From the NCBI GenBank assembly GCA_964482135.1, contig CAYZWF010000006.1, positions 4,438-68,437 on the forward strand: a stretch of 64,000 bases of DNA, written 5' to 3'. This DNA is from an uncultured Rhodospirillaceae bacterium. Lineage in GTDB: Bacteria > Pseudomonadota > Alphaproteobacteria > UBA11136. Every line of letters starts with the position of its first letter. Within the stretch, counting starts at the first letter, position 1. Positions 1,138 to 32,305 of this stretch are shown piece after piece. Below the pieces are notes generated by a model. That model was not told the DNA's origin and ran no database searches. It was given only the letters and a program-made list of their open reading frames with translations. The position numbers were made by a program, and so were the translations under genes.

Positions 1138-1398
1138 GTCACCATACCGATGTTATGAGGAGAGAGCGCCTAACTTTCCGGGACAAGCTTGCCATAATTT
1201 GCGGCAACCCGGCGCAGGAAATCATGACTGTGGCGAAAGAAAACATGGATGATGTGTCTCCAGGAAAACTGCGGGAAAGAGTGTTACCTTGGAATCGGGG
1301 TCTCCTCCAATGAAAATAACCATGAGCACGCGGGGAATGGACAGAGATGAATCGATGACATATTGGAAGCTGGTTCGATCTTCCGTGCGCGTGTGGGC

Positions 1399-2481
1399 AT
1401 GAAGTTGGCAGACCTGAACATTGCCGGCCGCCCCATCGGGCCTGCGCACCCGCCTTTCGTGATCGCCGAAATGTCAGGGAACCACAACGGCGATTTGGAG
1501 CGCGCCCTTGCCATCATGGAAGCGGCAAAAAATGCTGGCGCTGATGCCGTCAAGCTCCAGACCTATACCGCCGATACTATCACCATCGACCATGATGGCC
1601 CGGAGTTCCGTATTAAAGGTGGTCCGTGGGACGGACGCAGACTTTACGATCTCTACCAGGAAGCCCACACGCCCTGGGACTGGCATGAGGCTCTTTTTGA
1701 CAAAGGGCGGGAGCTTGGGCTGATCGTCTTCAGCTCTCCCTTTGACGAAACGGCGGTGGATTTTCTGGAAAAATTGGATTGCTCCGCCTACAAGATTGCT
1801 TCCTTCGAAGCGGTGGACCTGCCATTGATCGCCCGTGTCGCGGCGACGGGAAAGCCATTGATCATTTCCACCGGCATGGCGAACCGGGAAGAGATCGATG
1901 CGGCGGTTCGTGGCGCGCGTGAAAATGGCGCCGGCGGACTGGCGCTGTTGCATTGTGTCAGCGCCTATCCGGCGCTGCCGGAAGAAGCCAACCTGCGGAC
2001 GATCCCCCATATGATGTCCAGCTTCGAAACAGTGGTGGGTTTGTCCGATCACACGCCCGGTATTGGCGTTGCCGTGGCCTCGGTTGCATTTGGGGCCTGC
2101 CTCATTGAAAAGCACTTCACCTTGAGCCGTGATGACGGGGGGCCCGATGCGGCGTTTTCCCTGGAACCGCCGGAGTTACAAGCCCTGACACGGGAATGCC
2201 GTGCTGCCTGGGAGGCGCTGGGTGACGTGTGTTACGAACGGACACCCGGCGAAAAAGGCAATATTCTCTTTCGGCGCTCTCTCTATGTGGTGAAGGACAT
2301 TGCACAGGGTGAGGCGTTTACGGAAAAAAATATTCGCTCTATCCGCCCCGGCCACGGACTTCCGCCCAAGCATTACGGAGAGATTCTAGGACGCAAGGCC
2401 AAACATGCGCTTGCAAGGGGCGTGGCCCTGCAATGGCCAGATATTGAAGAAACGGAAACAAAGAATGCGGAAAAACCATGA
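1399..2481 (+). CDS. NeuB/PseI/LegI-family nonulosonic acid (sialic/pseudaminic/legionaminic acid) synthase
   Basis: The N-terminus reads 'LNIAGRPIGPAHPPFVIAEMSGNHNG' (TIM-barrel PEP-condensing motif). The C-terminus is a SAF domain ('IRSIRPGHGLPPKHYGEILGRKA'). Track ORF is 1363..2481; M13 (MKLADL) was taken as the start. Confidence 0.8.
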   Translation: MKLADLNIAGRPIGPAHPPFVIAEMSGNHNGDLERALAIMEAAKNAGADAVKLQTYTADTITIDHDGPEFRIKGGPWDGRRLYDLYQEAHTPWDWHEALFDKGRELGLIVFSSPFDETAVDFLEKLDCSAYKIASFEAVDLPLIARVAATGKPLIISTGMANREEIDAAVRGARENGAGGLALLHCVSAYPALPEEANLRTIPHMMSSFETVVGLSDHTPGIGVAVASVAFGACLIEKHFTLSRDDGGPDAAFSLEPPELQALTRECRAAWEALGDVCYERTPGEKGNILFRRSLYVVKDIAQGEAFTEKNIRSIRPGHGLPPKHYGEILGRKAKHALARGVALQWPDIEETETKNAEKP

Positions 2482-3107
2482 CTGACGACAACGTCCCCAT
2501 TGACGCCTGGAAGGGTAAATTCGGTGACGACTATGCGGCGCGAAACCGCGCCACCGGAGAAGCCGTGGGCAATGTGGCGCGCGCCTTTGCGGAAATTTTT
2601 TCTCATGTGAAGGACAGTCCGCCGACGTCCATTCTCGAAGTGGGTGCCAATATCGGCATCAACCTGAGGGCATTGGCGGGAATCACTGACGCCGAGCTCT
2701 TTGCCGTGGAGCCAAATGCCAGCGCCCGCGAACAGCTTGTGGCCGATAAGGTGCTGCCGCAAGACCGCCTGTTCGACGCCGTGGCCACAAAACTTCCTCT
2801 CGATGACGGGGCCGTGGACCTTATCTTTACTTCCGGTGTTCTGATTCATGTGCCGCCCGAGGATCTTGAAACGGCCTATGGCGAAATCCACCGGGTGGCG
2901 GCGCGTTATATTCTGTCCATCGAATATTTCTCTTCCACGCCGGTGAGCATCCCCTATCGCGGCCATGAGGGCCTGTTGTTCAAACGCGATTTCGGCGGCA
3001 TGTGGCTTGATCTCTTCCCCGCTCTCGAGCCCGTGGCCAACGGCTTCTTCTGGAAGCGAACCGCGGGTCTTGATGACGTCAACTGGTGGCTTTTCAGAAA
3101 ACCTTGA
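2478..3107 (+). CDS. Small class I SAM-dependent methyltransferase (pseudaminic-acid-biosynthesis-associated methylase type, tentative)
   Basis: 209 aa. Motif I-like 'ILEVGANIGINL' and motif 'VDLIFTSGVLIHV'. Its start overlaps the NeuB-like stop (ATGA coupling). Confidence 0.55.
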   Translation: MTDDNVPIDAWKGKFGDDYAARNRATGEAVGNVARAFAEIFSHVKDSPPTSILEVGANIGINLRALAGITDAELFAVEPNASAREQLVADKVLPQDRLFDAVATKLPLDDGAVDLIFTSGVLIHVPPEDLETAYGEIHRVAARYILSIEYFSSTPVSIPYRGHEGLLFKRDFGGMWLDLFPALEPVANGFFWKRTAGLDDVNWWLFRKP

Positions 3108-4237
3108 ATACGTCTCTCTGCCGTATCCTGTTCTTCCTGCCCGATCTCGACGGCGGGGGGTCGCAGCGCACCCTGGTCAATCTGGCCGGGGCCCTTCCGC
3201 GCGACCGTTTTACCGCCACCCTGGCCGCCGGGCGCAGTGACGGTCCGGCGCGAGACTGGCTCGCCGGCCATGTGCCGTTGGTGGATTTGAATGCGCCGCG
3301 CCTGCGCTGGACGCTCACCCCTCTGCGTGGGCGTGTGAAGCGCGAGCGTCCCCATATCCTGTTTTCCTCCATGCCCGACGCCAATGTGGCGGCCTCTCTG
3401 GCGGTGGCGGGCCTGCGGTCGCGTCCCGGGCTTATCCTGCGCGAGACCAATTCACACCGCCATCGTGGTGATCTCAGCTGGCTGCGGCGCAAGCTGATCG
3501 GATGGGCCTACGGGCGGGCTGACGCCGTGGTGGCCCTGTCGGAGGGCGTTCGCGAAGAACTGGTGGAAGATTGCGCCCTCGATCCCGGACGCACGGTCAC
3601 CATCCACAATCCCGTGGACGTGGGAGGCATCGCCGCGGCGACGAGAGCCGTAAAGGACAGTATCCAGGAAGTCCCCCTAAACGGCCCCCTGATTGTGGGC
3701 TGTGGGCGGCTGCACCGGCAGAAGGGCTTCGATCTTCTCATTGAGGCCTTCGCCGATCTTGATGATGCCAGGGCGCGGCTTGTGATTCTCGGCGAGGGGT
3801 CGGAGCGCGAGGCGCTGGAAGCCCTTGCCCGGTCTCGTGGCGTGGCCGACCGGGTGTTGATGCCGGGCTTCGAGAGTCATCCCGAAAAATGGCTCGCCCA
3901 GGCCACTCTTTTTGTCCTGCCGTCGCGCTGGGAAGGGTTTGGTCATGTGTTGGTGGAAGCGCTGGCTGCGGGAGTTCCGGTGGTTTCGGCATGGGCGCCT
4001 CACGGCCCCGCCGATATTCTCGACGACGGCGAGACCGGCCTGATGGTGCCCACAGGGAACGCCGCAGCTTTGGGCGCGGCCATCGACCGTCTTCTTATCG
4101 ATAAGGGGCTGCGGGGGCGCCTGGCCGAGGCCGGGCGCAAGACGGCGGAGCGTTTTTCGCTGCCGGTGATCGCCGAACGTTATGCCGACCTTATTGAGAA
4201 CGTAGCCGCAAAGAACCCAGTCGGGGAAAGTTCCTAG
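3086..4237 (+). CDS. Glycosyltransferase family 4 (GT-B, retaining)
   Basis: N-terminus 'ILFFLPDLDGGGSQRTL'. C-terminus 'EGFGHVLVEALAAGVPVV' (E-X7-E-type GT4 motif). The true start may lie slightly downstream of 3086. Confidence 0.8.
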   Translation: MAFQKTLNTSLCRILFFLPDLDGGGSQRTLVNLAGALPRDRFTATLAAGRSDGPARDWLAGHVPLVDLNAPRLRWTLTPLRGRVKRERPHILFSSMPDANVAASLAVAGLRSRPGLILRETNSHRHRGDLSWLRRKLIGWAYGRADAVVALSEGVREELVEDCALDPGRTVTIHNPVDVGGIAAATRAVKDSIQEVPLNGPLIVGCGRLHRQKGFDLLIEAFADLDDARARLVILGEGSEREALEALARSRGVADRVLMPGFESHPEKWLAQATLFVLPSRWEGFGHVLVEALAAGVPVVSAWAPHGPADILDDGETGLMVPTGNAAALGAAIDRLLIDKGLRGRLAEAGRKTAERFSLPVIAERYADLIENVAAKNPVGESS

Positions 4238-4242
4238 ATTCC

Positions 4243-6054
4243 ATGTGTGGACTCGCCGCCTTGTTCGATCCGGGGCACCGTTTCGATCCTGCTCTTTTGG
4301 CCGGGATGGAAGACGACCTGTTTCATCGCGGCCCCGATTCCGGCGGCATTGTGTCGGAGCCTGGTTTGGCGCTGGTGTTCCGGAGGCTGGCCATTCTCGA
4401 TCCGGGGTCACAGGCCGACCAGCCCATGAGCGATGCTTCGGGTCGCTGCAGCCTGGTCTTCAACGGTGAGATATATAATTACCGTGCCCTGCGCCAGGCT
4501 CTGGAGCAGGAAGGCGTGCGCCTGCGTACCAGCGGCGACACGGAAGCGGTGCTCGAAGGCTATTTGCACTGGGGCGAGGATGTGCTGAACCGGCTGGAGG
4601 GCATGTTCGCCTTCTGTCTTGTGGACCGGGAGCGTGGCGTGGCGCTGGCGGCGCGTGATCCCCTGGGCATCAAGCCGCTTTATATGATGCATAGCGGGAC
4701 CACGGTGGCTTTCGCCAGCGAAATGCGGCCGCTGTTTCGCCTTCGGCCGCCACAGGTGGATGAGGCGGCGCTGGCGGAGCTCGTCACCTTTGGCTGGGCG
4801 GCGGGACGGTTAAGCAATTGCAAAGGCATCGAACACCTTCCCGGCGGCACACTGGTGACGATACCGCTGGCCGGGGGTGTTCCGGCGGAGCGGCGCTATT
4901 GCGACCCCCTGGAGACATTGTGTCGCGATCCCGAGTTGAACCGGGCCGATGCCGAAGAACAGGTGTCTGAGGCACTGGAAGAATCGGTGAAGGCGCATCT
5001 GGCCAGTGACGTGGGCTATGCCATGCAGCTTTCCGGTGGCGTGGATTCGAGTCTGGTGGCGGCCCTGGCCCAGGGCGAAACCGCTGGCAGGCTTACCTCC
5101 TTTGCGGTTTCGCTGGGCGATCACCCTTATGACGAGGGACACTATCGGGACATGGTGGTGCAACGCTATGGTCTCGATCATCACGAAGTTGCGGTTTCCG
5201 CCGCCGATTATGCCCAGGCGCTGCCGCGCGCGGTACGCCACATGGAAGGACCGCTTCCCCACGGCGGCTGTGTCACCCTGATGTTGTTATGTGAACGCAT
5301 CCGCAAGCATACCAAGGTAGTGCTGACCGGCGAGGGGGCCGACGAGATGTTCGGCGGCTATCAACGCTATGGGATATGGAACAAGACCCAGTGGCAGGAA
5401 CGGCTGGGGCGGTTTTTGCCGACGCGGTTTTTGCCGCCTTTGTGGCCGGTAGCGGGAATGCGGCGCATGGGCGGTCTCGATGCTGCAGCTTACGCTTCGG
5501 TCTATCATGATTTCCAGGCGGTCCAGAAGGTGTTCCCCGGCCTGGTGCCGGAACCGGGCGCGCGGGAGGCGGCAAGCCGCCGTTTCTCCGATTTCCGCGA
5601 CCGCCTGTTTGCCGTGGACCAGGCTGCCTATCTCGAATCACTTTTGGTGCGCCAGGACAAGATGAGCATGGCGGCCTCGGTGGAAGCGCGGGTGCCTTTC
5701 GTTCATATGCCGTTGCTGCGCCTCGTCAACAGCCTGCCCCACGCCCTGCGCGCGCCGGGAGGTGATACCAAGCCGTTGCTCAAGCGTATGGCCGAGCGCC
5801 ATCTTCCCCATGATCTTATCCATCGCCGCAAGATCGGCCTGTGGCTGCCCTACGAGGAATGGTTCGCCGACGCCAAAGGTGCGGGGGGGTATCTCGACGA
5901 CCTGACGGGGCCCGACTCGCGGCTGGCGGCCTATGCCGAGAAAGGAAAGTTAACGGCGCTGGTGGACGGGTGCCGTGCCGGCGCCCGTTCTGCGGGGCTG
6001 GTGCTGGAACGGCTTGTGGGCGTGGAGTTATGGTTGCGCTCCCTGGCCGGATAA
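4243..6054 (+). CDS. Asparagine synthetase B-family glutamine amidotransferase (WbpS/PseA-like amidotransferase candidate)
   Basis: 603 aa. N-terminal nucleophile 'MCGLAALFD'. Synthetase-domain PP-loop 'QLSGGVDSS'. Confidence 0.85.
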   Translation: MCGLAALFDPGHRFDPALLAGMEDDLFHRGPDSGGIVSEPGLALVFRRLAILDPGSQADQPMSDASGRCSLVFNGEIYNYRALRQALEQEGVRLRTSGDTEAVLEGYLHWGEDVLNRLEGMFAFCLVDRERGVALAARDPLGIKPLYMMHSGTTVAFASEMRPLFRLRPPQVDEAALAELVTFGWAAGRLSNCKGIEHLPGGTLVTIPLAGGVPAERRYCDPLETLCRDPELNRADAEEQVSEALEESVKAHLASDVGYAMQLSGGVDSSLVAALAQGETAGRLTSFAVSLGDHPYDEGHYRDMVVQRYGLDHHEVAVSAADYAQALPRAVRHMEGPLPHGGCVTLMLLCERIRKHTKVVLTGEGADEMFGGYQRYGIWNKTQWQERLGRFLPTRFLPPLWPVAGMRRMGGLDAAAYASVYHDFQAVQKVFPGLVPEPGAREAASRRFSDFRDRLFAVDQAAYLESLLVRQDKMSMAASVEARVPFVHMPLLRLVNSLPHALRAPGGDTKPLLKRMAERHLPHDLIHRRKIGLWLPYEEWFADAKGAGGYLDDLTGPDSRLAAYAEKGKLTALVDGCRAGARSAGLVLERLVGVELWLRSLAG

Positions 6055-6072: not shown

Positions 6073-7464
6073 ATGTGGAAAGAAACCCTTTTATCGCCTT
6101 CCCTGTCGTCTTCCCCGGGCTTATTATCCTGGCGGACCATGTTTATCATCTGGGAGGTGGCGGTGGTGGTGCGGATGGTCAACCTGGCCGCCATGCCCAT
6201 GGAGCCGGGGCTTCTTCTGGGCGAGGATGCGTGGCTCTACTGGGCCAATGCCCTTTCCCTGTTGGAACACGGAACTTTCGCGGATACTGCCAGTTCGGGC
6301 CGCATGCCCGGCTATTTTCTGCTATTGGCGGGGCTGATGGGCGTGTTCGGGCCGTCGCTCTTTGCGGTGCTGGCGGTTCAGGCCCTGCTCGATGCCGTCA
6401 CCTGTGTCCTGGTGGGCATGATCGGCGCAAGACTGTCCATGAGCGTGGGGCTGGTGGCGGGGCTATTGGCCGCCCTCTGGCCGAACATGGTGATCATGAG
6501 CGCTTCGGTGCTGACGGACAGTTTCTTCATGCTTCCCTTCACCGCCATGCTTTACGCATTCCTGCGTTTTCTCGAAACCGGATTGACCCGTTGGGCGGGC
6601 TGGGCCGGGCTGTTTCTCGGGGGCGCCATCATGGTGCGGGCGGTTGCCCAGTATTTCCCACTTGCCATGGTGTTTCTGGTTGTGGCCGTGCCCCTGTTTC
6701 GGGAGCGCGACTGGCGCAAGGGCTTTCTCGCGGGGCTTGCCTTTCTTGTGGCTGTGGCCCTGCCCCTGGCGCCGTGGCTACAGCGCAATGTTACGCAGTT
6801 CGATAGCCTGGCCCTGACGTCGCAGGGTGGCGTGCATCTTCTATACTGGGTTGTTCCGGGGGTGCTTTCCCGGACCCAGGGTATCCAACAGGAACAGGCT
6901 GTGAAGGAGCTGCGGGAGGAATTCCAGGCCGAGATGGAATCGCGGGGGCTGGATACATCCAGTATGGATATATTCGCCCGCGACAGGGCCATGAAGGACT
7001 TTTCCCAGGCCCGGCTGGCTGAAATCCCATGGCGGGATATCACTGAATCATGGGGCTCGGGCATGACGGTTAATCTGATATCTCCCGCAATTGCCGCCGA
7101 TCCGCGCGCACGCGCCATGCCCCATCCCAGTTTTATCGGCACCTCCCACCTCGACCTCCTATCGCGAATTACTCTCTATGTACAGGAGGCGTCGCCGGTC
7201 TATCTGGCGGTGGTCGCCGTTGGCATAATCGGCGCCGTTCTGGCTTCCCTGCTCCAGATATACGGTTTTGTCCTGCTTTCCCGGGTCTCGGGATGGGTGG
7301 CGATTCTGAGCGTTGCGGGTATGTTGTATTTTCTGCTTATCAGCGGGCCCATCACCGCGCCTAAATACAGGTTGCCCTTCGAGCCGGTGCTGATCATCCT
7401 TCAGGCCCTGGCACTGGTGGAGTTGTGGCCGCGTTTGCGCCGCATGGCGGGAGGAAGCATATAA
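6073..7464 (+). CDS. ArnT/PMT-like (GT39/GT83-type) polytopic GT-C glycosyltransferase
   Basis: 463 aa with many TM helices. An acidic first-loop motif 'GEDAWLY' follows TM1, as in lipid-linked-sugar-dependent GT-C transferases. Confidence 0.6.
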   Translation: MWKETLLSPSLSSSPGLLSWRTMFIIWEVAVVVRMVNLAAMPMEPGLLLGEDAWLYWANALSLLEHGTFADTASSGRMPGYFLLLAGLMGVFGPSLFAVLAVQALLDAVTCVLVGMIGARLSMSVGLVAGLLAALWPNMVIMSASVLTDSFFMLPFTAMLYAFLRFLETGLTRWAGWAGLFLGGAIMVRAVAQYFPLAMVFLVVAVPLFRERDWRKGFLAGLAFLVAVALPLAPWLQRNVTQFDSLALTSQGGVHLLYWVVPGVLSRTQGIQQEQAVKELREEFQAEMESRGLDTSSMDIFARDRAMKDFSQARLAEIPWRDITESWGSGMTVNLISPAIAADPRARAMPHPSFIGTSHLDLLSRITLYVQEASPVYLAVVAVGIIGAVLASLLQIYGFVLLSRVSGWVAILSVAGMLYFLLISGPITAPKYRLPFEPVLIILQALALVELWPRLRRMAGGSI

Positions 7465-7483: not shown

Positions 7484-8005
7484 ATGGTGATCTGGATTAC
7501 CGGACTTTCAGGCGCCGGCAAGACAACGCTGGCTACGGCGCTCTACGAGGCCATGAAGCCTGCCCTGCCCACCCTGGTGCGGATTGATGGTGACGAGGTG
7601 CGGGCGCTTTTCGGCAACTCCCTGGGCTTTGCCGAATCCGACCGCCGCCTTCAGATTCAACGTCTGCAGAGTCTCGCCACTATACTGGACGGCCAGGGTC
7701 TCACCGTGATCGTGGCGGCTCTTTACGCCCATCCCGAATTGCTGGCCTGGAACCGGGATCATTTTTCCGATTATTTCGAGGTCTATCTCGAGGCCTCGCT
7801 GGAGCTGGTGCGCAGCCGCGATCCCAAGGGACTGTACGCCAAGGCGGATTCCGGCGATATGCCTGATGTGGTGGGGGTGGACGTGCCGTGGCACGTGCCG
7901 GACAATCCCCACATGACGGTGACGGCGGGGGACGATCTCGATACGGGCGTGGTGGCGCGCGATATCATGGACCGCCTATCTTCTCTGAGCGGGACCGGGA
8001 AATAA
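7484..8005 (+). CDS. cysC: Adenylyl-sulfate (APS) kinase
   Basis: 173 aa. P-loop 'ITGLSGAGKTTLA'. Length is typical of stand-alone CysC. Confidence 0.85.
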   Translation: MVIWITGLSGAGKTTLATALYEAMKPALPTLVRIDGDEVRALFGNSLGFAESDRRLQIQRLQSLATILDGQGLTVIVAALYAHPELLAWNRDHFSDYFEVYLEASLELVRSRDPKGLYAKADSGDMPDVVGVDVPWHVPDNPHMTVTAGDDLDTGVVARDIMDRLSSLSGTGK

Positions 8006-8015
8006 ACGGGCAGCC

Positions 8016-9098
8016 ATGAGCGAACTCGTCCTCACCCGCCCCCAGTATCTGGAGCTTGAAAAGCTCGGCCTGGGCGCCTTTCGCCCGCTCACCGGCTTCA
8101 TGAACGAAGATGAGTTCCAGGGCTCCGTGGAAACCATGCGGCTTCCCGGTGGCGCGGTCTTCCCCCTGCCCGTGGTGCTGGACGTGGATGGAGAGACGGC
8201 CACACGGCTGGAGGGCCTGCCCCGGGTGGCGCTGGTTTATGACGGCGAACAGGTGGGCGAATTGCGTCCCGAAAGCGTCTTTACCTGCGACAAGGCGGCG
8301 GTGGCCGAAAAGGTCTATGGCACCACCGATCCCGCTCATCCCGGCGTGGCGTTTTTCATGGCCGGTGGCGACCATTTCATGGGCGGTGCGGTGGCGCTGA
8401 CCAAACGCGCCACCTTCGATTTTTCCAGCGATGAACTGGCGCCCGAAGAAACCCGCGCCCTGTTTGCCGAGAAGGGGTGGCAAACCGTTGTCGGATTCCA
8501 GACCCGCAATGTGCCCCACCGCGCTCACGAATATCTGCAACGCATCGCTCTGGAACAGGTGGATGGTCTCTTCATCCAGCCCCTGGTGGGGCGTAAGAAA
8601 AAAGGCGACTACACGCCACAGGCGATCCTGCGCGGCTATCGCACCCTGATCGGGGAGTTCTATCCCGCCGACAAGGTGGCGCTGGGCATTCTCTCCACTT
8701 ATATGCGTTATGCCGGGCCGCGCGAGGCCGTATTTCATGCCCTCGTCAGGCGCAATTACGGCTGTACCCATTTCATCATCGGCCGCGATCATGCCGGGGT
8801 CGGAGATTATTACGGCACCTACGAGGCCCACGAGATGACGCGGCGCTTCGACGGCGATCTCGGGATCGAGATCATGTATCTGCACGGCCCTTATTTCTGC
8901 GGCCGTTGCGATGGCATCGTCACCGAACAGACCTGTCCCCATGAAAAAGACCTGCCCGATTCCGTTACCCATATCAGCGGCACCGACATGCGGGCTATGC
9001 TGCTTGGCGGCAAGGAGCCGGATGCCCATCTCATGCGGCCGGAGGTGATCGCCGCGCTTCAGGGAACCGAGCTGTTTATCGAGGATGACGAAACATGA
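8016..9098 (+). CDS. sat: Sulfate adenylyltransferase (ATP sulfurylase, homo-oligomeric Sat type)
   Basis: 360 aa. Has 'QTRNVPHRAHEYL' and 'IIGRDHAGVGDYYG' motifs. Its stop overlaps the next start (ATGA). Confidence 0.85.
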   Translation: MSELVLTRPQYLELEKLGLGAFRPLTGFMNEDEFQGSVETMRLPGGAVFPLPVVLDVDGETATRLEGLPRVALVYDGEQVGELRPESVFTCDKAAVAEKVYGTTDPAHPGVAFFMAGGDHFMGGAVALTKRATFDFSSDELAPEETRALFAEKGWQTVVGFQTRNVPHRAHEYLQRIALEQVDGLFIQPLVGRKKKGDYTPQAILRGYRTLIGEFYPADKVALGILSTYMRYAGPREAVFHALVRRNYGCTHFIIGRDHAGVGDYYGTYEAHEMTRRFDGDLGIEIMYLHGPYFCGRCDGIVTEQTCPHEKDLPDSVTHISGTDMRAMLLGGKEPDAHLMRPEVIAALQGTELFIEDDET

Positions 9099-10534
9099 GC
9101 GCCACCCGCATCGTCTGTACCATCGGCCCGGTTACCAATAATGAACCGGCGCTACGCGATCTGGCAGCGGCGGGAATGAACGTGGCCCGGCTCAATGGCT
9201 CCCACGGCGATCTTGACTGGCATGCCGCCGCTATCGCCCTGCTGCGCGAGGTGGCGCCCGAGATTCCGATTCTTCTCGATATTCCCGGACGCAAGATTCG
9301 CACCACCGACTTGGCTCACGAGCCCGAATTCGCGCGCGGCGATACGGTAATACTGACCACCGAAGAAGGTCATGACGGTTCCGAAAAAGTGCCCGTCAAC
9401 CGGGCCTCTTTGCATGAAGAGGTGAGCGCGGGCGACGTGATCCTGGCCGATGACGGCACCTTGAAATTCAACGTGGAAAAGGTCACGGGACAAGACATCC
9501 ATCTCCAGGCCGAAGGGCCGGGAAAGCTCAAGAGCCGCAAGGGAATCAACGTTCCCTCGCTCTCCCTGGCGGGTGAGGGGGTGACACAGCGTGACCGTGA
9601 CATGATGGCCTTTGCCCGCGAACACGGCGTTGATTACATCGGTATCAGCTTCGTTGATTCCGCCGAACATGTGAACGCGGTGCGCGAACTGTGCGGCGGT
9701 AACTGGCCGCGTATCGTCTCTAAGGTGGAAAACCAGGGCGGGCTGGATAATCTCGAACAGATCGTGGAGGCCACCGATGCGGTAATGATCGACCGCGGTG
9801 ATTTGTCGGTGGAAACCAATCTCGAAAACCTGGCTTTGTTCCAGAAACACATCCTCGATGTATCCCGCGCCCACGGCAAGCCGGTGATTGTGGCCACGGA
9901 AATGCTCCATACCATGATCGAGAATTCCTTCCCCACCAAGGCCGAGGTTAGCGACATCACCAATGCCGTTCTCGATGGCTGTTCCGCCGCCATGTTGTCG
10001 GGGGAGACGGCGGTGGGCGCCCACGCCACGGAATCGGTGGCGGTCATGCGGCGGGTCGCCGATGCCGCCGAAGCCGATCTTCAGGCGCGGCTCGACGACG
10101 GGCGCGAAGCGGCACGCCGCGGCGACCGGCCCACCAGCGTGCCTCAGGCCATGGAAGATGCGGTGGCCTTGATCTGCCGTTCACTGCCCATCACCAAGAT
10201 CGTCGCCGTGACTATCTCCGGCTATGCCGCCCGCATGACGGCGGCGCGGCGTCCCAGCCAGCCCATCATCGGCGTCAGCAACGACGCCATGGCGGCGCGC
10301 AGCTTCAACCTTTTCTGGGGCGCCCAGGGTGTGCATGTGGACATTCCCTTTTCCAAGACCTCCACCGATCATGTGGTGAAATGCCTTGAGGAACTGTGGC
10401 GGCGCGGCATTCTCGACGACCATGACCTGATTTTGGTGACGGCCTTGGGCTATCCCCGCTCAGGCAACCGCATGAATCTTCTCCAGACCCATGCGGTCTG
10501 TGACCTTGTGGAATCCCTGAGCTGGAAAAAATAA
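9095..10534 (+). CDS. Pyruvate kinase family protein (divergent paralogue)
   Basis: 479 aa. Has 'VCTIGP', 'MNVARLNGSHG', 'SKVENQGG' and 'MIDRGDLS'. Canonical motifs are altered: 'ATEMLHTM' for ATQMLESM, 'SGETAVG' for SGETAKG. It is translationally coupled to sat. Confidence 0.75.
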   Translation: MSATRIVCTIGPVTNNEPALRDLAAAGMNVARLNGSHGDLDWHAAAIALLREVAPEIPILLDIPGRKIRTTDLAHEPEFARGDTVILTTEEGHDGSEKVPVNRASLHEEVSAGDVILADDGTLKFNVEKVTGQDIHLQAEGPGKLKSRKGINVPSLSLAGEGVTQRDRDMMAFAREHGVDYIGISFVDSAEHVNAVRELCGGNWPRIVSKVENQGGLDNLEQIVEATDAVMIDRGDLSVETNLENLALFQKHILDVSRAHGKPVIVATEMLHTMIENSFPTKAEVSDITNAVLDGCSAAMLSGETAVGAHATESVAVMRRVADAAEADLQARLDDGREAARRGDRPTSVPQAMEDAVALICRSLPITKIVAVTISGYAARMTAARRPSQPIIGVSNDAMAARSFNLFWGAQGVHVDIPFSKTSTDHVVKCLEELWRRGILDDHDLILVTALGYPRSGNRMNLLQTHAVCDLVESLSWKK

Positions 10535-10599: not shown

Positions 10600-12546
10600 A
10601 TGTGCGGTTTTGCCGGTTTCATTGACCTCGCCCGGCGTACGCCGGAAGCCGACCTTCTGGCGCGGGCCGAAGGCATGGCCGCGCGACTCTATCATCGTGG
10701 CCCCGACGGCGATGGTGTATGGGCCGATGCGGGCACCGGGCTGGGGCTGGGGCATCGCCGGCTTGCCATCCTCGATCTTTCTCCCGCCGGGCATCAGCCC
10801 ATGGTTTCGGCCGATGGCCGTTATGTGATCGCTTATAACGGCGAGGTCTATAATTTCCCCGAACTGCGCGCCGAGTTGGAGGCTGGGGGCGTGGCCTTTC
10901 GTGGCAGCTGTGATACCGAGGTGGTGGTGGAAGCCATCGCCGCCTGGGGCCTTGAACGCGCGCTGGGGCGCATGGTGGGCATGTTCGCCTTTGCCCTGTG
11001 GGACAAGGCCGAACGCGTTCTTTGCTTGGCGTGTGACCGGCTCGGCATCAAACCGCTCTATTGGGGCCGTTGCGGGGAGCATTTTCTCTTTGCTTCCGAG
11101 ATCAAGGCTCTGCGCGCCCATCCCGCCTGGACGGCAACGGTGGACCGGGACGCGCTGGCGGCGTATTTGCGCTTCGGCTATGTGCCGGCACCACGCAGTA
11201 TCTATGCCGGCATTGCCAAACTTGAGGCGGGCACCTTCCTCACTCTGCGCGAGGGGGGCGAAGCGGAAATCCGGCGCTATTGGGATTTGCGGGAAATCAC
11301 GCTTTCCTCCCGCGCCCGGCTACGGGACCTGGACGATGCGGAAGCCACCGACCGGCTCGACAGCCTTTTACGTGATGCGGTGAAGGGGCGTATGGTGGCC
11401 GACGTGCCGCTGGGGGCGTTTCTCTCCGGCGGCGTGGACAGTTCCACCGTCACCGCCCTGATGCAGGATCAGAGCTCGCGCCCGGTGGAAACTTTTTCCA
11501 TCGGTTTTTCCGAGTCCGCTTTCGACGAATCGAGCGAGGCCGACGCCGTGGCCCGTCATCTCGGCACCGATCATACGGAACTTATGGTTTCGCCCGCCGA
11601 TGCGCGGGCGGTGATTCCCCATCTGCCGCATATCTATGACGAGCCCTTCGCCGATTCCTCCCAGATTCCCACTTATCTGGTGTCACGGCTGGCGCGTCAC
11701 CGGGTGAGCGTGGCGCTGTCGGGGGATGGCGGCGATGAAATGTTCGCGGGCTATAACCGCCATCGTCTGGCGGCGGGGGTGTGGCCACGCCTGGGGCGAG
11801 TTCCCCCGGCGCTGAGGGGGATGGCCGCTTCCTGTCTGCGAACCCTTCCGCCACGGCTGTGGGATATGTTGTTCGCGCCTTCACCGAAACGTCTGCGCCA
11901 TGTGCTTACTGGCGACCGCATGCACAAACTGGCGGCGGTGCTCGCCAGCGCTAATGACGCCGATCTCTACGGGAGGCTGGTAAGCCAGTGGCCCGATCCG
12001 GAATCGCTGGTTGTTGAGGGCGCATGCGAGGGGGAACAAATATGGAATGATCCGGGCCTTGTGCGCGACCTGCCGGATCTCATGGCGCGCATGCGTTACA
12101 TGGACACGGTGGGCTACCTTCCCGGAGATATCCTGACCAAGCTCGATCGTGCCAGCATGGCCGTCAGCCTTGAGGCCCGGGTGCCGCTCATCGACCATCG
12201 GGTGGCGGAATTTGCCGCCGGCGTGCCTCCGCATATGCTGATCCGGGGGCGGCGCGGCAAATGGCTGTTGCGTCAGGTGCTGCACCGTTATGTGCCGGAG
12301 GAACTGGTAACGCGCCCCAAGACCGGCTTCGGTGTGCCTCTTGATTCCTGGTTACGGGGACCGCTGCGCGACTGGGCCGAGGGCCTGTTATCGCGGTCGC
12401 GACTCGAGGAAGAGGGATTCTTCGCACCCGTGCCGGTACGCCGGGTGTGGAAGGAACATCTTTCGGGACGCCGCAATCATCAGCACAAGCTGTGGGCGGT
12501 GCTCATGTTCCAGGCCTGGTACACGGGCGAACATTCCCTGAATTGA
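10600..12546 (+). CDS. Asparagine synthetase B-family glutamine amidotransferase (second copy)
   Basis: 648 aa. 'MCGFAGFID' Ntn nucleophile. 'FLSGGVDSS' PP-loop. Confidence 0.85.
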   Translation: MCGFAGFIDLARRTPEADLLARAEGMAARLYHRGPDGDGVWADAGTGLGLGHRRLAILDLSPAGHQPMVSADGRYVIAYNGEVYNFPELRAELEAGGVAFRGSCDTEVVVEAIAAWGLERALGRMVGMFAFALWDKAERVLCLACDRLGIKPLYWGRCGEHFLFASEIKALRAHPAWTATVDRDALAAYLRFGYVPAPRSIYAGIAKLEAGTFLTLREGGEAEIRRYWDLREITLSSRARLRDLDDAEATDRLDSLLRDAVKGRMVADVPLGAFLSGGVDSSTVTALMQDQSSRPVETFSIGFSESAFDESSEADAVARHLGTDHTELMVSPADARAVIPHLPHIYDEPFADSSQIPTYLVSRLARHRVSVALSGDGGDEMFAGYNRHRLAAGVWPRLGRVPPALRGMAASCLRTLPPRLWDMLFAPSPKRLRHVLTGDRMHKLAAVLASANDADLYGRLVSQWPDPESLVVEGACEGEQIWNDPGLVRDLPDLMARMRYMDTVGYLPGDILTKLDRASMAVSLEARVPLIDHRVAEFAAGVPPHMLIRGRRGKWLLRQVLHRYVPEELVTRPKTGFGVPLDSWLRGPLRDWAEGLLSRSRLEEEGFFAPVPVRRVWKEHLSGRRNHQHKLWAVLMFQAWYTGEHSLN

Positions 12547-14672: not shown

Positions 14673-14941
14673 GGCGAGATCTTCCCCCGTGCGGTATTGT
14701 GCATAAATTCACTGTGCTTTGGTAGAAAAAGCTCACCCGGGCCGGTACGCCGCGGCAGGCGGGACATAACGCGCCGTTTCAATATGGAGAGATGCAAAAA
14801 CTGGGGGTTTACGGGTGTTGTGCGGGGAAGCCAGGCAGCTCTCGTTAACGGTAAATTTCAGGGCGTGGATGGAAATATCCGATACGTCGAACAGCTTCGA
14901 AAGGGCATATTTCTTTAGTAAGAATAAAGCGGAGACAAAGC

Positions 14942-16144
14942 ATGTCCGATAAAGAATTATTACAAAATAAAACGGAAAAAGAGGTTCTTAGAGTCTACCA
15001 AAAAGTAAACCCCTCCACATACCCGATCGAAGAAGACCCCAAGGAATACCGGCGCAGAATGGATTTCATGGAGGACCTGTTTCTCCATCGCCTTAATTTT
15101 CCACCTAAAATGTTCAAGGATGCGACCCTTCTCGACTTCGGAACAGGGACCGGAGAGAACTCGCTGTTTTATCTGGTGGCAGGGGCTTCGTGTACCTTTG
15201 TGGAAATGAACCAGCTGGCCTGCCAGAGAGCCGAAAAATTATTTAAACAATTTTCTTCAGAGTCATCAAAATGGGAAATCGTCAACGAGTCCCTTTTCGA
15301 TTTTAACAGCGACGAATCATACGACATCGTTATTTCTAACGGTGTTATTCACACCACATCGGACAAGGAAAAGGCGATTGAAATAAAGTCCAAGCACTTG
15401 AAAAACGGGGGTTTCCTCGTTCTTGGCATCGCCAATTCCGCGGGCTCATTCCAACGCAACCTGCAACGGGCCATTCTCTATCATTTCGCCACAAGTGACG
15501 AAGATATTGCCTCTCTTGCCGAGGAACTGTTCGCCGACCATTTGGATCGTGCCGAAAAATTCAGTAGCCGGGACAGGAAGGCGATCATATACGATTCTTA
15601 CGTAAATCCTAAACTCGATACTCCGAGCGTATCGGAAATTTTGAATTGGTTTTCAAAGAACGGCCTGGTCATGTATTCGTCATGGCCGCCCATCATCCCG
15701 GCGATTCTTGGTGATCCGGCGGACAGAAAACCGTTGCCGCTCGAAGACTTTCCCAGCCTGATGAGCCTTGCGGAAATTATCTATTTAAGTCATTCCGACG
15801 ATGATGCGATCGTCTTGGCCGAAACCGAAAAAGGAATGGAGCCGGCCATTAAATCGTTTAAGGAGATTGTCGATTTGCTGAGTGATGTGACACCCAATGG
15901 GCGCATCGAAGTTGATGATGCCATTAAAAAAATCGATACATTCCAGGCGGGAGAAAAAAGATTAGATCCGTATCTTCCTCATATGGACAGGCTGACGAAC
16001 GCTCTGGAAGAAACCAAATGTATTATTGAGGCCCTCAAAAAAGATGACATCAATGGTGTCAAAAAATGCATCGAAGATACAAAAGTGCTTTTTAAGGGAA
16101 CACATGGATTGGGAATGAGCTGGTATATCGGGTATAAGCGCTAA
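14942..16144 (+). CDS. SAM-dependent methyltransferase with an uncharacterised ~200-aa C-terminal domain (copy 1)
   Basis: 400 aa. 'LLDFGTGTGENSLF' motif I and 'YDIVISNGVIHT' motif II in the N-terminal half. Only about 42% GC. Confidence 0.75.
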   Translation: MSDKELLQNKTEKEVLRVYQKVNPSTYPIEEDPKEYRRRMDFMEDLFLHRLNFPPKMFKDATLLDFGTGTGENSLFYLVAGASCTFVEMNQLACQRAEKLFKQFSSESSKWEIVNESLFDFNSDESYDIVISNGVIHTTSDKEKAIEIKSKHLKNGGFLVLGIANSAGSFQRNLQRAILYHFATSDEDIASLAEELFADHLDRAEKFSSRDRKAIIYDSYVNPKLDTPSVSEILNWFSKNGLVMYSSWPPIIPAILGDPADRKPLPLEDFPSLMSLAEIIYLSHSDDDAIVLAETEKGMEPAIKSFKEIVDLLSDVTPNGRIEVDDAIKKIDTFQAGEKRLDPYLPHMDRLTNALEETKCIIEALKKDDINGVKKCIEDTKVLFKGTHGLGMSWYIGYKR

Positions 16145-16168
16145 ATAAAAATAAGACGGAGACAAAGC

Positions 16169-17371
16169 ATGTCCGATAAAGAATTATTACAAAATAAAAC
16201 GGAAAAAGAGGTTCTTAGAGTCTACCAAAAAGTAAACCCCTCCACATACCCGATCGAAGAAGACCCCAAGGAATACCGGCGCAGAATGGATTTCATGGAG
16301 GACCTGTTTCTCCATCGCCTTAATTTTCCACCTAAAATGTTCAAGGATGCGACCCTTCTCGACTTCGGAACAGGGACCGGAGAGAACTCGCTGTTTTATC
16401 TGGTGGCAGGGGCTTCGTGTACCTTTGTGGAAATGAACCAGCTGGCCTGCCAGAGAGCCGAAAAATTATTTAAACAATTTTCTTCAGAGTCATCAAAATG
16501 GGAAATCGTCAACGAGTCCCTTTTCGATTTTAACAGCGACGAATCATACGACATCGTTATTTCTAACGGTGTTATTCACACCACATCGGACAAGGAAAAG
16601 GCGATTGAAATAAAGTCCAAGCACTTGAAAAACGGGGGTTTCCTCGTTCTTGGCATCGCCAATTCCGCGGGCTCATTCCAACGCAACCTGCAACGGGCCA
16701 TTCTCTATCATTTCGCCACAAGTGACGAAGATATTGCCTCTCTTGCCGAGGAACTGTTCGCCGACCATTTGGATCGTGCCGAAAAATTCAGTAGCCGGGA
16801 CAGGAAGGCGATCATATACGATTCTTACGTAAATCCTAAACTCGATACTCCGAGCGTATCGGAAATTTTGAATTGGTTTTCAAAGAACGGCCTGGTCATG
16901 TATTCGTCATGGCCGCCCATCATCCCGGCGATTCTTGGTGATCCGGCGGACAGAAAACCGTTGCCGCTCGAAGACTTTCCCAGCCTGATGAGCCTTGCGG
17001 AAATTATCTATTTAAGTCATTCCGACGATGATGCGATCGTCTTGGCCGAAACCGAAAAAGGAATGGAGCCGGCCATTAAATCGTTTAAGGAGATTGTCGA
17101 TTTGCTGAGTGATGTGACACCCAATGGGCGCATCGAAGTTGATGATGCCATTAAAAAAATCGATACATTCCAGGCGGGAGAAAAAAGATTAGATCCGTAT
17201 CTTCCTCATATGGACAGGCTGACGAACGCTCTGGAAGAAACCAAATGTATTATTGAGGCCCTCAAAAAAGATGACATCAATGGTGTCAAAAAATGCATCG
17301 AAGATACAAAAGTGCTTTTTAAGGGCACGCACGGATTGGGAATGAATTGGTATATCGGGTATAAAGCTTGA
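16169..17371 (+). CDS. SAM-dependent methyltransferase with an uncharacterised C-terminal domain (copy 2)
   Basis: 400 aa. Identical to copy 1 except for the last residues (…GMSWYIGYKR versus …GMNWYIGYKA). Confidence 0.75.
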   Translation: MSDKELLQNKTEKEVLRVYQKVNPSTYPIEEDPKEYRRRMDFMEDLFLHRLNFPPKMFKDATLLDFGTGTGENSLFYLVAGASCTFVEMNQLACQRAEKLFKQFSSESSKWEIVNESLFDFNSDESYDIVISNGVIHTTSDKEKAIEIKSKHLKNGGFLVLGIANSAGSFQRNLQRAILYHFATSDEDIASLAEELFADHLDRAEKFSSRDRKAIIYDSYVNPKLDTPSVSEILNWFSKNGLVMYSSWPPIIPAILGDPADRKPLPLEDFPSLMSLAEIIYLSHSDDDAIVLAETEKGMEPAIKSFKEIVDLLSDVTPNGRIEVDDAIKKIDTFQAGEKRLDPYLPHMDRLTNALEETKCIIEALKKDDINGVKKCIEDTKVLFKGTHGLGMNWYIGYKA

Positions 17372-17570: not shown

Positions 17571-17864
17571 ATGTCAGCTAAATCCGCCCTTGAGATCGTC
17601 CAGACCGCAATTTCTGAAGTAAACGAACAGAACGACGACGGCCAGGCCATCGACGCCGCGCCGGAAACGGTGCTTCTCGGACCCGGCGGCGTCGCCGATT
17701 CATTAATTCTGGTAAATATCGTAGTGGCGGTCGAACAGAACCTGGAGGCCCAGACCGGCACCTACGTGACGCTTATCGAAGACGACACCGTTCTGGGTGA
17801 TGATGGCCCCTTGCGGACGGTTGGAAGTCTCGTCGAATTTGTCGCTGGGAAAATGGGCGGATGA
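17571..17864 (+). CDS. Acyl carrier protein-like (phosphopantetheine attachment 'DSL')
   Basis: 97 aa, acidic. 'GGVADSLILVNIVVAVEQ' matches the ACP helix-2 serine motif. Confidence 0.6.
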   Translation: MSAKSALEIVQTAISEVNEQNDDGQAIDAAPETVLLGPGGVADSLILVNIVVAVEQNLEAQTGTYVTLIEDDTVLGDDGPLRTVGSLVEFVAGKMGG

Positions 17865-17865
17865 T

Positions 17866-18561
17866 GTGTCGCGCACGGTTCTTATAACGGGCGCCAGCCG
17901 GGGAGTCGGCCTCAGGCTGGCCGCCGAAATGGCCGCTCGCGGTGATGTGGTTTTTGGCTGCGGCCGGTCGAAAGCGCCTGCGGATATTTCCTTTCATTAT
18001 ACAGAGGCTGACGTCGGGGATGAAAAATCCGTGAAGGCGCTTTTTAGTGCATTGCGCAAGGAAGCGGACGGATTGGATGTTCTTATAAACAATGCCGGCC
18101 TCGCGGACGCTAAATCGCTTTTGCTCAGCCGAGCCGAAGATTTTTCCAGTATCTTCGCCGCCAATGTAACCGGCGCCGCCATCGTGTCGCGCGAAGCGGC
18201 TAAAATGATGAAGCGGCGCGGCGGGGCTATCATCAATGTTTCCTCCATCCATGTGCCCTTGGCGTCGGTGGGCAGCGGCGCTTACGGGGCTTCCAAGGCG
18301 GCGCTGGAACAGCTTTCCCGCGTCATGGCCCATGAACTGGCAAGCGATTCCATTTCGGTTAACAGCCTCGGACTTTCCTACGTCGAAGGGACCGGTATGG
18401 CGGAGGCACAGAGCGAAAAAGCAGTCGAGGCGGCCTCGGCCCGGCTCGCCCGGCCCGGTCAAATCACCGTCGACGAGGTTCTTCATGCGGTTGATTTCCT
18501 TTCTTCCCCGGCGGCTCGGAATATCACCGGTGAAACCCTTTATTTCGGCGGGCCCCTCTAG
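17866..18561 (+). CDS. Short-chain dehydrogenase/reductase (ketoreductase candidate)
   Basis: 'VLITGASRGVGL' Rossmann motif and 'YGASKAAL' catalytic Y-x3-K. A GTG start at 17866 was chosen just after the ACP stop; the track's ATG at 17797 overlaps the ACP. Confidence 0.7.
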   Translation: MSRTVLITGASRGVGLRLAAEMAARGDVVFGCGRSKAPADISFHYTEADVGDEKSVKALFSALRKEADGLDVLINNAGLADAKSLLLSRAEDFSSIFAANVTGAAIVSREAAKMMKRRGGAIINVSSIHVPLASVGSGAYGASKAALEQLSRVMAHELASDSISVNSLGLSYVEGTGMAEAQSEKAVEAASARLARPGQITVDEVLHAVDFLSSPAARNITGETLYFGGPL

Positions 18562-18577
18562 GTTCCGGTCAGGCACC

Positions 18578-19219
18578 GTGCAGAACAAGGTAAAGCAGAT
18601 CGTCAACGGCCCCTGGCAGCAGAATTGCTACCTGATCGGGGGTAAGGACGACGCCGCGCTTATTCTCGATCCGGGTAGCGACGCGCTATTGATTGAAAAA
18701 AGCATTGAGGATGCCGGCTTCAAACCCATCGCTATCATCAACACCCATGCCCATTACGATCATATTGGCGCGGTGGCGGCGCTGATGAAGCGCTATGCCA
18801 TTCCCTTTTATATGCACAGCAGCGACGCGGATATTCTGAAGCAGGCCAACGTCTATCGGCGGATTTTCGGCTGTTCGATTAAGGTCGAGGTGCCGGAGAT
18901 CACCCATGACCTCGCCACTCTTCCCGCGGAAATCGATATCGGACCCTTCCGGGTATCCTGGCTGGCGACACCGGGCCATACCCCGGGCAGCGTCACCTTT
19001 ACCATCGATGGCGATCTTTTTCCCGGCGACACGCTTTTTTGTGATTCCATCGGCCGCACCGACCTTCCGGGCGGTGACAGGGCGGTGCTCGCTCTGTCGT
19101 TGCGCCGAGTTACGGAACTGCCGCCGCATCTCATGTTGCGACCGGGTCACGGCCCGGCGGCGGTGCTTGGTGACATTATCGCATCCAACAAAACTCTGGC
19201 CGAGGCCATCGCCGCATGA
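18578..19219 (+). CDS. MBL-fold metallo-hydrolase (glyoxalase II/thioesterase-like)
   Basis: 'IINTHAHYDHIG' HxHxDH motif and 'TPGHTPGS'. GTG start at 18578; the long track ORF from 18236 overlaps the SDR gene. Confidence 0.7.
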   Translation: MQNKVKQIVNGPWQQNCYLIGGKDDAALILDPGSDALLIEKSIEDAGFKPIAIINTHAHYDHIGAVAALMKRYAIPFYMHSSDADILKQANVYRRIFGCSIKVEVPEITHDLATLPAEIDIGPFRVSWLATPGHTPGSVTFTIDGDLFPGDTLFCDSIGRTDLPGGDRAVLALSLRRVTELPPHLMLRPGHGPAAVLGDIIASNKTLAEAIAA

Positions 19220-21632: not shown

Positions 21633-21662
21633 CCCGCAACTTTAATATGTTGCGGGCTTTTT
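21632..21662. terminator. Bidirectional intrinsic terminator between the convergent ligase and carbamoyltransferase genes
   Basis: The hairpin 'gcccgcaac-tttaatat-gttgcgggc' is followed by 'ttttt'. Confidence 0.6.
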
Positions 21663-21677
21663 GCCGCCTGACCGGTC

Positions 21678-23381: not shown

Positions 23382-23421
23382 CTGAAAAACCCTCAATCGT
23401 TGATTGTCGATATTTGATAAA

Positions 23422-23511
23422 TGGCGGTGGGGGTGGGATTCGAACCCACGGTACCCGCAAGGGCACAACGGTTTTCGAGACCGCCCCGTTCAACCACTCC
23501 GGCACCCCACC
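23422..23511 (-). tRNA. tRNA-Ser (anticodon CGA)
   Basis: The reverse complement gives GGTGGGG…GGTCTCGAAAACC…GTGGGTTCGAATCCCACCCCCACCGCCA. It has a 7-bp acceptor stem, a long variable arm, a T-loop GGTTCGAATCC and 3' CCA. Length 90 nt. Confidence 0.85.
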
Positions 23512-30550: not shown

Positions 30551-30617
30551 AATGCCATAAAAGACTTCTTGTTTCCCGCCCTCCGTTTCAGAAATTTTTC
30601 CCCATGGATATGAAGAT

Positions 30618-31052
30618 ATGGATGTGAAGATTGATCCGGTAACAGAAGAAGAAAAGGCAAGATGGCCCAAGGAGGTTATCGTCCCCCTGCTGGATCCCTT
30701 TGTGGATGCCCGTGGCGCTATCCAGCCGCTGGTGGACGAGGACATGAAGAGCTGTGTTCTCATTTCCTCCAAGAAAGGCACGGTGCGGGCCAACCACTAT
30801 CACAAGACTGACTGGCATTACTGTTACGTGCTGGTGGGAAAGATCGAATATTACCACCGCCCCACGGGAAGCGACGCGGCGCCAGAGAAAGTGATGGTGG
30901 AGGCGGGGCAGATGTTCTTCACGCCGCCCATGGTGGATCATTCCATGGTCTTTCCCGAGGAAGCGGTCTTCATCACCTGGGGGCGCAATTCCCGCCTTCA
31001 GGAGGTCTATGAAGCCGACGTGGTGCGTATCGATCCCATCGAGCCGTCATGA
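30618..31052 (+). CDS. Small cupin, WxcM/FdtA-like sugar 3,4-ketoisomerase (tentative; an RmlC-type epimerase is not excluded)
   Basis: 144 aa with 'HYHKTDWHYCYVLVGKIEY' cupin motifs. Size and context match NDP-keto-sugar isomerases. Confidence 0.5.
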   Translation: MDVKIDPVTEEEKARWPKEVIVPLLDPFVDARGAIQPLVDEDMKSCVLISSKKGTVRANHYHKTDWHYCYVLVGKIEYYHRPTGSDAAPEKVMVEAGQMFFTPPMVDHSMVFPEEAVFITWGRNSRLQEVYEADVVRIDPIEPS

Positions 31053-32302: not shown

Positions 32303-32305
32303 AAT

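Follow-up and report, generated by a model that had tools for sequence, protein, structure and literature searches.

What is a gene for a pyruvate kinase (PK) doing directly behind the two genes that make 3'-phosphoadenylyl sulfate (PAPS), in the middle of a glycan cluster? The question is raised by a 64,000-nucleotide stretch of DNA (here called the window) from an uncultured Rhodospirillaceae bacterium (assembly GCA_964482135.1, contig CAYZWF010000006.1, positions 4,438 to 68,437), in which cysC, sat and pk follow one another on the forward strand between positions 7484 and 10534. The PK is a member of a pyruvate kinase subfamily, hitherto without a name, whose genes accompany those of PAPS-making enzymes and are sometimes fused to them, and for the exclusive clade that holds the window protein we have coined the name PK-S. 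From its sequence and its genomic company we think it fairly probable that the trio is a self-contained PAPS-supply module, in which PK-S would use phosphoenolpyruvate (PEP) to turn the ADP of the adenylyl-sulfate (APS) kinase back to ATP.

The cysC-sat-pk genes and the PK-S subfamily

The first gene of the trio, cysC (7484-8005, + strand), encodes a probable APS kinase of 173 amino acids (PF01583, E 5e-33) that retains the P-loop GLSGAGKTT and the DGD motif. It passes the model NF004041 (141.6 bits, cutoff 127) and lies below the cutoff of TIGR00455 (126.4 bits, cutoff 138.7); aligned with its closest solved structure, 5cb6 (E 5e-27), it has LYAH in place of ISPY, VVG in place of FTG and QIQR in place of NIRR. 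Ten nucleotides further on, sat (8016-9098, + strand) encodes a homo-oligomeric ATP sulfurylase of 360 amino acids with PUA_2 and ATP-sulfurylase domains (E 2e-81), which scores above the cutoffs of NF003166 (430 bits, cutoff 387) and TIGR00339. Its QTRNVPHRAHE and GRDHAG motifs are canonical in an alignment with 8a8d and 1v47, the former being its closest solved structure, the ATP sulfurylase of Methanothermococcus thermolithotrophicus (E 1e-101). The sat stop and the pk start share the letters ATGA, and pk itself (9095-10534, + strand) encodes a protein of 479 amino acids with both PK domains (PF00224, 296 bits, E 4e-88; PF02887, 61.9 bits, E 7.5e-17), a TIGR01064 score of 409 bits (cutoff 306) and 2e28 as its closest solved structure (E 6e-81).

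How ordinary is this PK? We compared it with a close set of 120 homologues (61-91% identity), aligned with the Geobacillus PK, and with a deep set, for which 1.84 billion cluster representatives were searched and the best 150 matches aligned together with a few added sequences; residue numbers such as R72 and F75 are those of rabbit muscle PK, and numbers such as G35 and K282 those of the window protein. The window PK keeps all 12 of the catalytic and ligand residues examined (R72, N74, S76, D112, R119, K206, K269, E271, D295, T327, S361 and E363), among them all that bind PEP, Mg2+ and the nucleotide phosphates; they are invariant or nearly so in the 120 close homologues and are retained, with rare conservative exceptions, in the 44 deep representatives that bear the signature described next.

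That signature is absent from the 115 canonical PKs of the deep alignment. It comprises the fixed substitutions F75G, K114P, E117K, A292D, Q328E and R341K, and is represented in the window PK by G35, I63, P64, K67, D233, S238, E269, H272 and K282. At the level of motifs, NFSHG has become NGSHG, LDTKGPEIR has become LDIPGRKIR, MVARGDLGVEI has become MIDRGDLSVET, ATQMLES has become ATEMLHT and PTRAE has become PTKAE. Eleven positions set PK-S apart from the 115 canonical representatives, those that separate the family throughout being G75, W82, P114, D292, E328, K341 and a few others, and the combination of G75, D292, S297, E328 and K341 never occurs complete in a canonical representative. Position 75 and Trp82 lie near His77, which borders the adenine pocket.

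In a neighbor-joining tree built without the signature columns, and without bootstrap support, 42 signature-bearing sequences form an exclusive clade; a fusion protein discussed below (P0271) falls outside it, probably because of its long branch, and is excluded from the statement about the clade. Ordinary alphaproteobacterial PKs (Azospirillum, Agrobacterium, Sinorhizobium, Bradyrhizobium and Skermanella; on chromids) share only 31-36% identity with the window PK, against 55-61% for PK-S members from Gammaproteobacteria, Planctomycetota and Gemmatimonadota, and the window PK is therefore not a vertical pykA orthologue. Neither Pfam nor NCBIfam has a model for the PK-S subfamily, and the source records call its members simply 'pyruvate kinase'.

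These comparisons bear on a preliminary description of the locus, made from the sequence alone, which had read the three genes as cysC, a Sat-type sulfurylase and a full-length PK-like protein with overlapping stop and start; the open reading frames (ORFs), the domain models and the shared ATGA all agree. It had also seen the catalytic Lys and Glu preserved in SKVEN, which is indeed present, and had taken the PK for a divergent paralogue, a view to which the exclusive clade, the fixed substitutions near the active site and the low identity to ordinary alphaproteobacterial PKs lend weight. It had further pointed to three altered motifs, and here the verdict is mixed: LLDIPGRKIR and ATEMLHTM are present and non-canonical, whereas SGETAVG is present but not truly deviant, SGETA being intact and the next residue being Ala already in the Geobacillus enzyme. 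The more diagnostic changes, NGSHG, MIDRGDLSVET and PTKAE, did not figure in that description.

PK-S is probably K+-independent, to judge from residues of known function. Experiments have identified Lys117 as the determinant of activity without K+ (PMC8835810, PMC4284704, PMC5501398), and the published signature combines K117 with L113, Q114 and a Leu, Ile or Val at 120 (PMC8835810). The equivalent K67 is found in 120 of 120 close homologues and I63 (position 113) is hydrophobic, while P64 (114) and T70 (120) depart from that signature. Position 114 sits in the lid-closing hinge loop, and Lys206 is located between the ribose 2'- and 3'-hydroxyls (PMC8835810).

Conservation of the module and its sulfotransferase neighbors

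Does the PK accompany sat and cysC elsewhere? Synteny was examined in 25 genome loci from different species (identified by L numbers), with PKs 55-96% identical to that of the window. The order cysC-sat-pk recurs in 16 of them; three more have sat-pk with a contig end just upstream, two carry all three genes rearranged and one is uninformative. The remaining three, one contig from Gemmatimonadota and two from Planctomycetota, have neither sat nor cysC next to pk on the same strand; upstream on one of the two Planctomycetota contigs lies a divergent sat-like ORF on the opposite strand. Carriers of the trio include Alphaproteobacteria, a gammaproteobacterial metagenome-assembled genome (MAG) and a MAG labeled Mesoflavibacter, as well as the cultured Stappia sediminis and Hongsoonwoonella zoysiae; the nearest relatives are marine alphaproteobacterial MAGs from the Black Sea (PK 96% identical) and the eastern tropical North Pacific (89%). 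The trio also occurs on metagenomic contigs and with a PK member of only 41% identity, and on a MAG contig (L004, 8392-14623) it is present in full twice in tandem, the two PK copies having 70% and 65% identity to that of the window. Across loci the identity of Sat to the window protein follows that of PK (r = 0.92, n = 24), as expected under co-inheritance. A 760-amino-acid 'PK' in L016 and other over-long ORFs were discarded as start-codon or antisense artefacts, sat and pk being in different frames there.

In two metagenomic proteins the linkage has gone as far as fusion. P0149 (859 amino acids) has the domain order PK, PK_C, PUA_2 and ATP-sulfurylase and is followed by an overlapping APS kinase gene, with a gene for a Wzx-type flippase adjacent; P0271 (744 amino acids) joins a PK barrel to Sat, with an APS kinase gene and then a Sulfotransfer_1 gene behind it. 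Another unit is found in a Woesearchaeota MAG (L038, 8001-11884), where a helix-turn-helix PK-S, sat, an NT5C-family nucleotidase, possibly concerned with disposal of 3'-phosphoadenosine 5'-phosphate (PAP), and an APS kinase lie within an AglB (STT3) glycosylation cluster. The Woesearchaeota-labeled PK-S proteins (P0148, P0156 and P0273) bear an N-terminal winged-helix domain.

Canonical sulfotransferase genes are present in about nine related loci. Pfam Sulfotransfer_1/3 genes adjoin or neighbor pk in L001, L011, L018, L019, L029/L030 and L035. In the two cultured strains, Stappia sediminis and Hongsoonwoonella zoysiae, cysC has a Sulfotransfer_1 gene before it and pk has a gene for a TauE/SafE-family anion permease behind it (L018, 11486-12235; L019, 11516-12235). 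The smallest units are on two Komagataeibacter plasmids, where a PK-S of 316-337 amino acids without the C domain comes after an annotated sulfotransferase (L032, 8148-9990, K. xylinus plasmid pA; L033, 805-2644, a K. saccharivorans plasmid); on one plasmid the genes overlap, on the other 55 nucleotides separate them, and the two short PK-S proteins keep the signature, share 91% identity and end at the same point. Both plasmids are mobilizable or conjugative, and the pair on pA adjoins a gene for a LuxR-type autoinducer-binding regulator. Because canonical sulfotransferases lie next to the module in relatives, we take its product to be PAPS and PK-S to be part of a sulfation pathway. Two propositions of the preliminary description are thereby strengthened: that a dedicated unit makes PAPS here for sulfation of a glycan or lipid and not for assimilatory housekeeping, given that the same three genes are found within the glycan clusters of many genomes unrelated to one another, frequently with PAPS-type sulfotransferases next to them; and that the work of the PK is linked to sulfate activation, given the conserved synteny, the PK-Sat fusions and the sulfotransferase-PK pairs.

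Other families recur around these loci. 'Sulfatase'-family proteins (PF00884) of about 540 amino acids stand directly beside the module in at least six loci (L003, 11462-13081; L004, 5368-7023; L024, in three copies; L025; L026; L036, 14686-16284); a sulfate-ester hydrolase in this position might serve editing, or the family might here have a different transferase activity. Membrane proteins of the CDP-alcohol-phosphatidyltransferase family, of about 250 amino acids, are found especially beside modules without a canonical sulfotransferase (L034, 208-975; L038, 6285-7777 and 11922-12680; L001, 3090-3911; and, as a weak match, L015, 4460-5239), and could be unrelated head-group transferases or unconventional users of activated sulfate. 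A family of 504 amino acids without a Pfam match lies closely 3' of pk in three loci (L012, 7467-8981; L013, 2658-4175; L014, 3642-5156, with one small ORF intervening) and is present in a fourth (L017, 3-1478).

Proposed role of the module and competing explanations

What would a PK contribute to PAPS synthesis? In the scheme that we favor, Sat would form APS from ATP and sulfate, CysC would phosphorylate APS to PAPS with release of ADP, and PK-S would reconvert that ADP to ATP at the expense of PEP, the net reaction being ATP + PEP + sulfate -> PAPS + pyrophosphate + pyruvate. Removal of ADP would relieve a dead-end APS kinase-ADP-APS complex, and the free energy of PEP would be added to an otherwise unfavorable sulfate activation, making PEP the ultimate driver, in a functional parallel to the GTP hydrolysis of CysN in CysDN-type systems; the PAPS would then be used to sulfate a surface glycan. 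An in-vitro PAPS cascade behaves as this scheme would predict: without PK and PEP, PAPS was 'practically missing' and ADP built up, which the authors attributed to the dead-end APS kinase-ADP-APS complex (PMC9885120). Since every required ligand is kept, the ordinary reaction, PEP + ADP -> pyruvate + ATP, is the most economical assumption for PK-S, and the intact PEP, metal and nucleotide-phosphate ligands favor ATP regeneration over a new substrate; the fusion of PK to Sat, itself a consumer of ATP, fits this model. Sat, CysC and PK-S may form a physical complex.

Several considerations weigh against PEP-driven ATP regeneration. The cellular ATP/ADP ratio is already high, and a dedicated PK would need local coupling or a very high flux. 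The chemistry assigned to PK-S is deduced from sequence and context, and F75G together with the conserved Trp82 near the nucleotide pocket could point to a different nucleotide substrate. The pairs of sulfotransferase and PK without sat or cysC, on the Komagataeibacter plasmids and in Planctomycetota loci, suit ADP recycling less directly, and the window holds no sulfotransferase, so that glycan sulfation in this organism is itself putative. Finally, the subunit interface has changed. Arg341 (Arg310 of the Leishmania enzyme LmPYK) normally crosses the A-A' interface and locks onto the backbone of the alpha6' helix (RGDLG) in the neighboring subunit and is reported to be essential in Leishmania PK (PMC3467265); it is Arg in 115 of 115 canonical representatives and Lys in 120 of 120 close homologues of the window PK, where it is Lys282 of PTKAE. 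The partner helix is altered as well, with an Asp (D233) gained before RGD and a Ser (S238) in place of Gly, which suggests that the inter-subunit lock has been rewired and that allostery is probably altered or lost, a reading that fits the natural PK-S forms without a C domain.

Some of these points are also the case for a PK-S with changed substrate or chemistry, serving the sulfotransferase step in place of APS kinase by recycling PAP, a 3'-phosphorylated nucleotide, by acting on another nucleoside diphosphate or by transferring a sulfuryl instead of a phosphoryl group. The eleven subfamily-specific positions, with F75G and Trp82 near the adenine pocket and K114P in the hinge loop, speak for it, as do the invariant Lys206 beside the ribose hydroxyls and the units that have a sulfotransferase but not sat or cysC; rabbit PK, moreover, has reportedly moved a sulfuryl group from sulfoenolpyruvate to ADP. 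Yet the retention of all PEP, Mg2+ and nucleotide-phosphate ligands is the pattern of the ordinary reaction, the fusion partner consumes ATP, the commonest and tightest linkage is with sat-cysC, and we know of no pathway that requires the altered chemistry, so that we hold it to be possible but unlikely. A mixed arrangement, in which a PK-S of altered specificity (for PAP-derived or other 3'-phosphorylated nucleotides, or for sulfuryl transfer) would close the adenine-nucleotide loop around the sulfotransferase within a Sat-CysC-PK complex activating sulfate on PEP, seems to us rather doubtful. That PK-S does not act as an enzyme at all and instead scaffolds or regulates Sat, CysC or the sulfotransferase might be read from the close translational coupling and the fusions, which suggest physical association, and from the dispensability of the C domain in some members; pseudoenzymes, however, normally lose their catalytic residues, and here all 12 are kept family-wide, truncated forms included, with rare conservative substitutions, which makes such a role very improbable.

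The trio might also make an activated donor other than PAPS, on the model of the O-methyl-phosphoramidate (MeOPN) pathway of Campylobacter, in which a homologue of APS kinase adds a 3'-phosphate to another nucleotide and is accompanied by a glutamine kinase, a cytidylyltransferase and a gamma-glutamyl hydrolase. The atypical CysC, with its score under the TIGR00455 cutoff and its deviating ISPY, FTG and NIRR stretches, and the glutamine amidotransferases on both sides of the trio would be in keeping with such a route. Against it stand the canonical motifs of Sat and its match of about 1e-101 to a characterized ATP sulfurylase, the PAPS-dependent Sulfotransfer_1/3 families of the neighboring transferases in relatives, the TauE/SafE-type permease 3' of pk in Stappia and Hongsoonwoonella, and the absence of AsnB-type genes from most related loci; no MeOPN partner gene was found among the window ORFs scanned. 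With a canonical Sat here and PAPS-type sulfotransferases adjacent in relatives, we rejected a MeOPN-like route, and a non-PAPS donor in general appears highly unlikely. Least credible of all is a housekeeping PK that adjoins sat and cysC by chance. It passes the TIGR01064 equivalog cutoff and the sources annotate it plainly as 'pyruvate kinase'; but the synteny extends across phyla at 55-70% identity while ordinary alphaproteobacterial PKs reach only 31-36%, the clade is exclusive even without the signature columns, and Sat fusions, a tandemly duplicated trio and plasmid-borne truncated copies all exist. Nor can a few related MAGs account for the synteny: the loci also come from cultured strains, from plasmids and from archaea.

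Genomic surroundings and relation to known systems

The trio is part of a ten-gene run on one strand, in which no gap exceeds 65 nucleotides and the order is PseI, pseudaminic-acid-associated methylase, GT4, AsnB, PMT_2 GT-C, cysC, sat, pk and AsnB. All on the + strand, these neighbors are the pseudaminic acid synthase PseI (1363-2481; TIGR03586, 505 bits, above cutoff), the associated methylase (2478-3107; TIGR03587, 154 bits, above cutoff), a GT4 glycosyltransferase (3086-4237; Glycos_transf_1 match) and a first AsnB-type amidotransferase (4243-6054; Asn_synthase match), with gaps or overlaps of at most 20 nucleotides between neighbors across 1363-6054. As the preliminary description had it, the trio is flanked by a GT-C (PMT_2 / ArnT-like) membrane glycosyltransferase (6073-7464; PF13231, E 2e-13), 19 nucleotides upstream of cysC, and an AsnB-type glutamine amidotransferase (10600-12546; Asn_synthase, E 2e-117), 65 nucleotides downstream of pk, which resembles TIGR03108 with a score under that model's cutoff. 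A homologue of this GT-C gene adjoins the trio in L001, L006 and L007, in L003 and L017 one is at most 10 kb away, and most related loci are without AsnB-type genes. Scans for promoters and terminators gave sites that were not enriched over shuffled sequences.

The same description placed the trio apart from cysH and cysDN and saw no sulfotransferase, and both observations hold for the 64-kb window: neither cysH nor cysDN occurs in it, and searches for a sulfotransferase with Pfam (about 50 ORFs), NCBIfam (20 ORFs) and tblastn (five sulfotransferases from related loci) were all empty. A second PK is likewise absent from the window. The glycan cluster runs on past the window start, and the sulfate acceptor here could plausibly be a glycan containing pseudaminic acid. 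The remainder of the window holds more sugar- and acyl-modifying genes and housekeeping genes (rplU, obg, proBA, gpmI, ATP synthase and sucAB). A near-perfect tandem duplication with a period of 1227 nucleotides (14919-17371) contains two ORFs for 400-amino-acid S-adenosylmethionine-dependent methyltransferases (14942-16144 and 16169-17371) with identical Pfam profiles, in a stretch of low GC content (47-50% against about 61%); it could be a genuine recent event or an assembly artefact. Next comes an acyl- and carbamoyl-decoration block (17571-23468) with an SDR, an MBL-fold protein, KAS-III, an AMP-dependent ligase, a NodU-like carbamoyltransferase on the opposite strand and a 97-amino-acid ORF, possibly an acyl carrier protein, that has no family match. 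Between rlmH and gpmI, a second glycan cluster (29753-39191) encodes a methyltransferase, a sugar C-methyltransferase, an epimerase, a GFO/IDH oxidoreductase, a B12-binding radical SAM enzyme, an ArnC-like GT2 and a 701-amino-acid DUF6044/YfhO membrane protein.

Sulfate activation is an uphill reaction, for which the textbook solutions are pyrophosphate hydrolysis together with APS kinase, or GTP hydrolysis by CysN. If our reading is correct, the module would represent a third, PEP-driven solution, provided by a PK lineage that has been inherited, duplicated and fused with Sat and CysC, and a natural counterpart of the PK/PEP trick that biocatalysis laboratories need for PAPS. A literature search, of incomplete coverage, found no natural PK in PAPS operons and PK only as a laboratory coupling enzyme. 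A PK with NGSHG, (I/L)DRGDL and PTKAE would then offer annotators a simple marker by which to recognize loci for the sulfation of glycans or lipids, in bacteria as well as in archaea, among genes that are currently all labeled 'pyruvate kinase, glycolysis', and the idea can be tested in cultured strains such as Stappia sediminis, Hongsoonwoonella zoysiae and the hosts of the Komagataeibacter plasmids.

Among known systems, the bifunctional PAPS synthases (human PAPSS1/2 and the Aquifex protein 2gks) likewise have sulfate-activation enzymes joined or co-expressed, with quick passage of the intermediate, and the Sat and CysC of the window are homologous to the two halves of these Sat-APS kinase proteins; the difference is that the partner here is a pyruvate kinase, the fusions being of PK with Sat while APS kinase is a separate gene. 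CysDN(C) would offer an analogy, in that formation of APS or PAPS is coupled to a second high-energy phosphate in answer to the same thermodynamic problem; CysD and CysN, however, are unrelated proteins that rely on GTP hydrolysis, whereas the module has a Sat-type sulfurylase and, as proposed, PEP by way of PK. With the K+-independent, Lys117-bearing PKs (Mycobacterium tuberculosis and the Vibrio cholerae PykA type), PK-S shares the three-domain architecture, the catalytic residues, Lys117 and a hydrophobic residue at 113 (PMC8835810, PMC5501398), but it has Pro114 and Thr120 where they have Gln114 and Leu, Ile or Val120, and it sits in sulfation gene clusters while they belong to central metabolism. 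In function the module would resemble engineered PAPS synthesis with PK and PEP, which brings together the same three activities and in which PK clears ADP and strongly lifts the PAPS yield (PMC9885120; PK/PEP regeneration is likewise used in PMC11143521); there, the system is a laboratory design with commercial muscle PK, whereas here it is naturally encoded, with a specialized PK lineage of its own.

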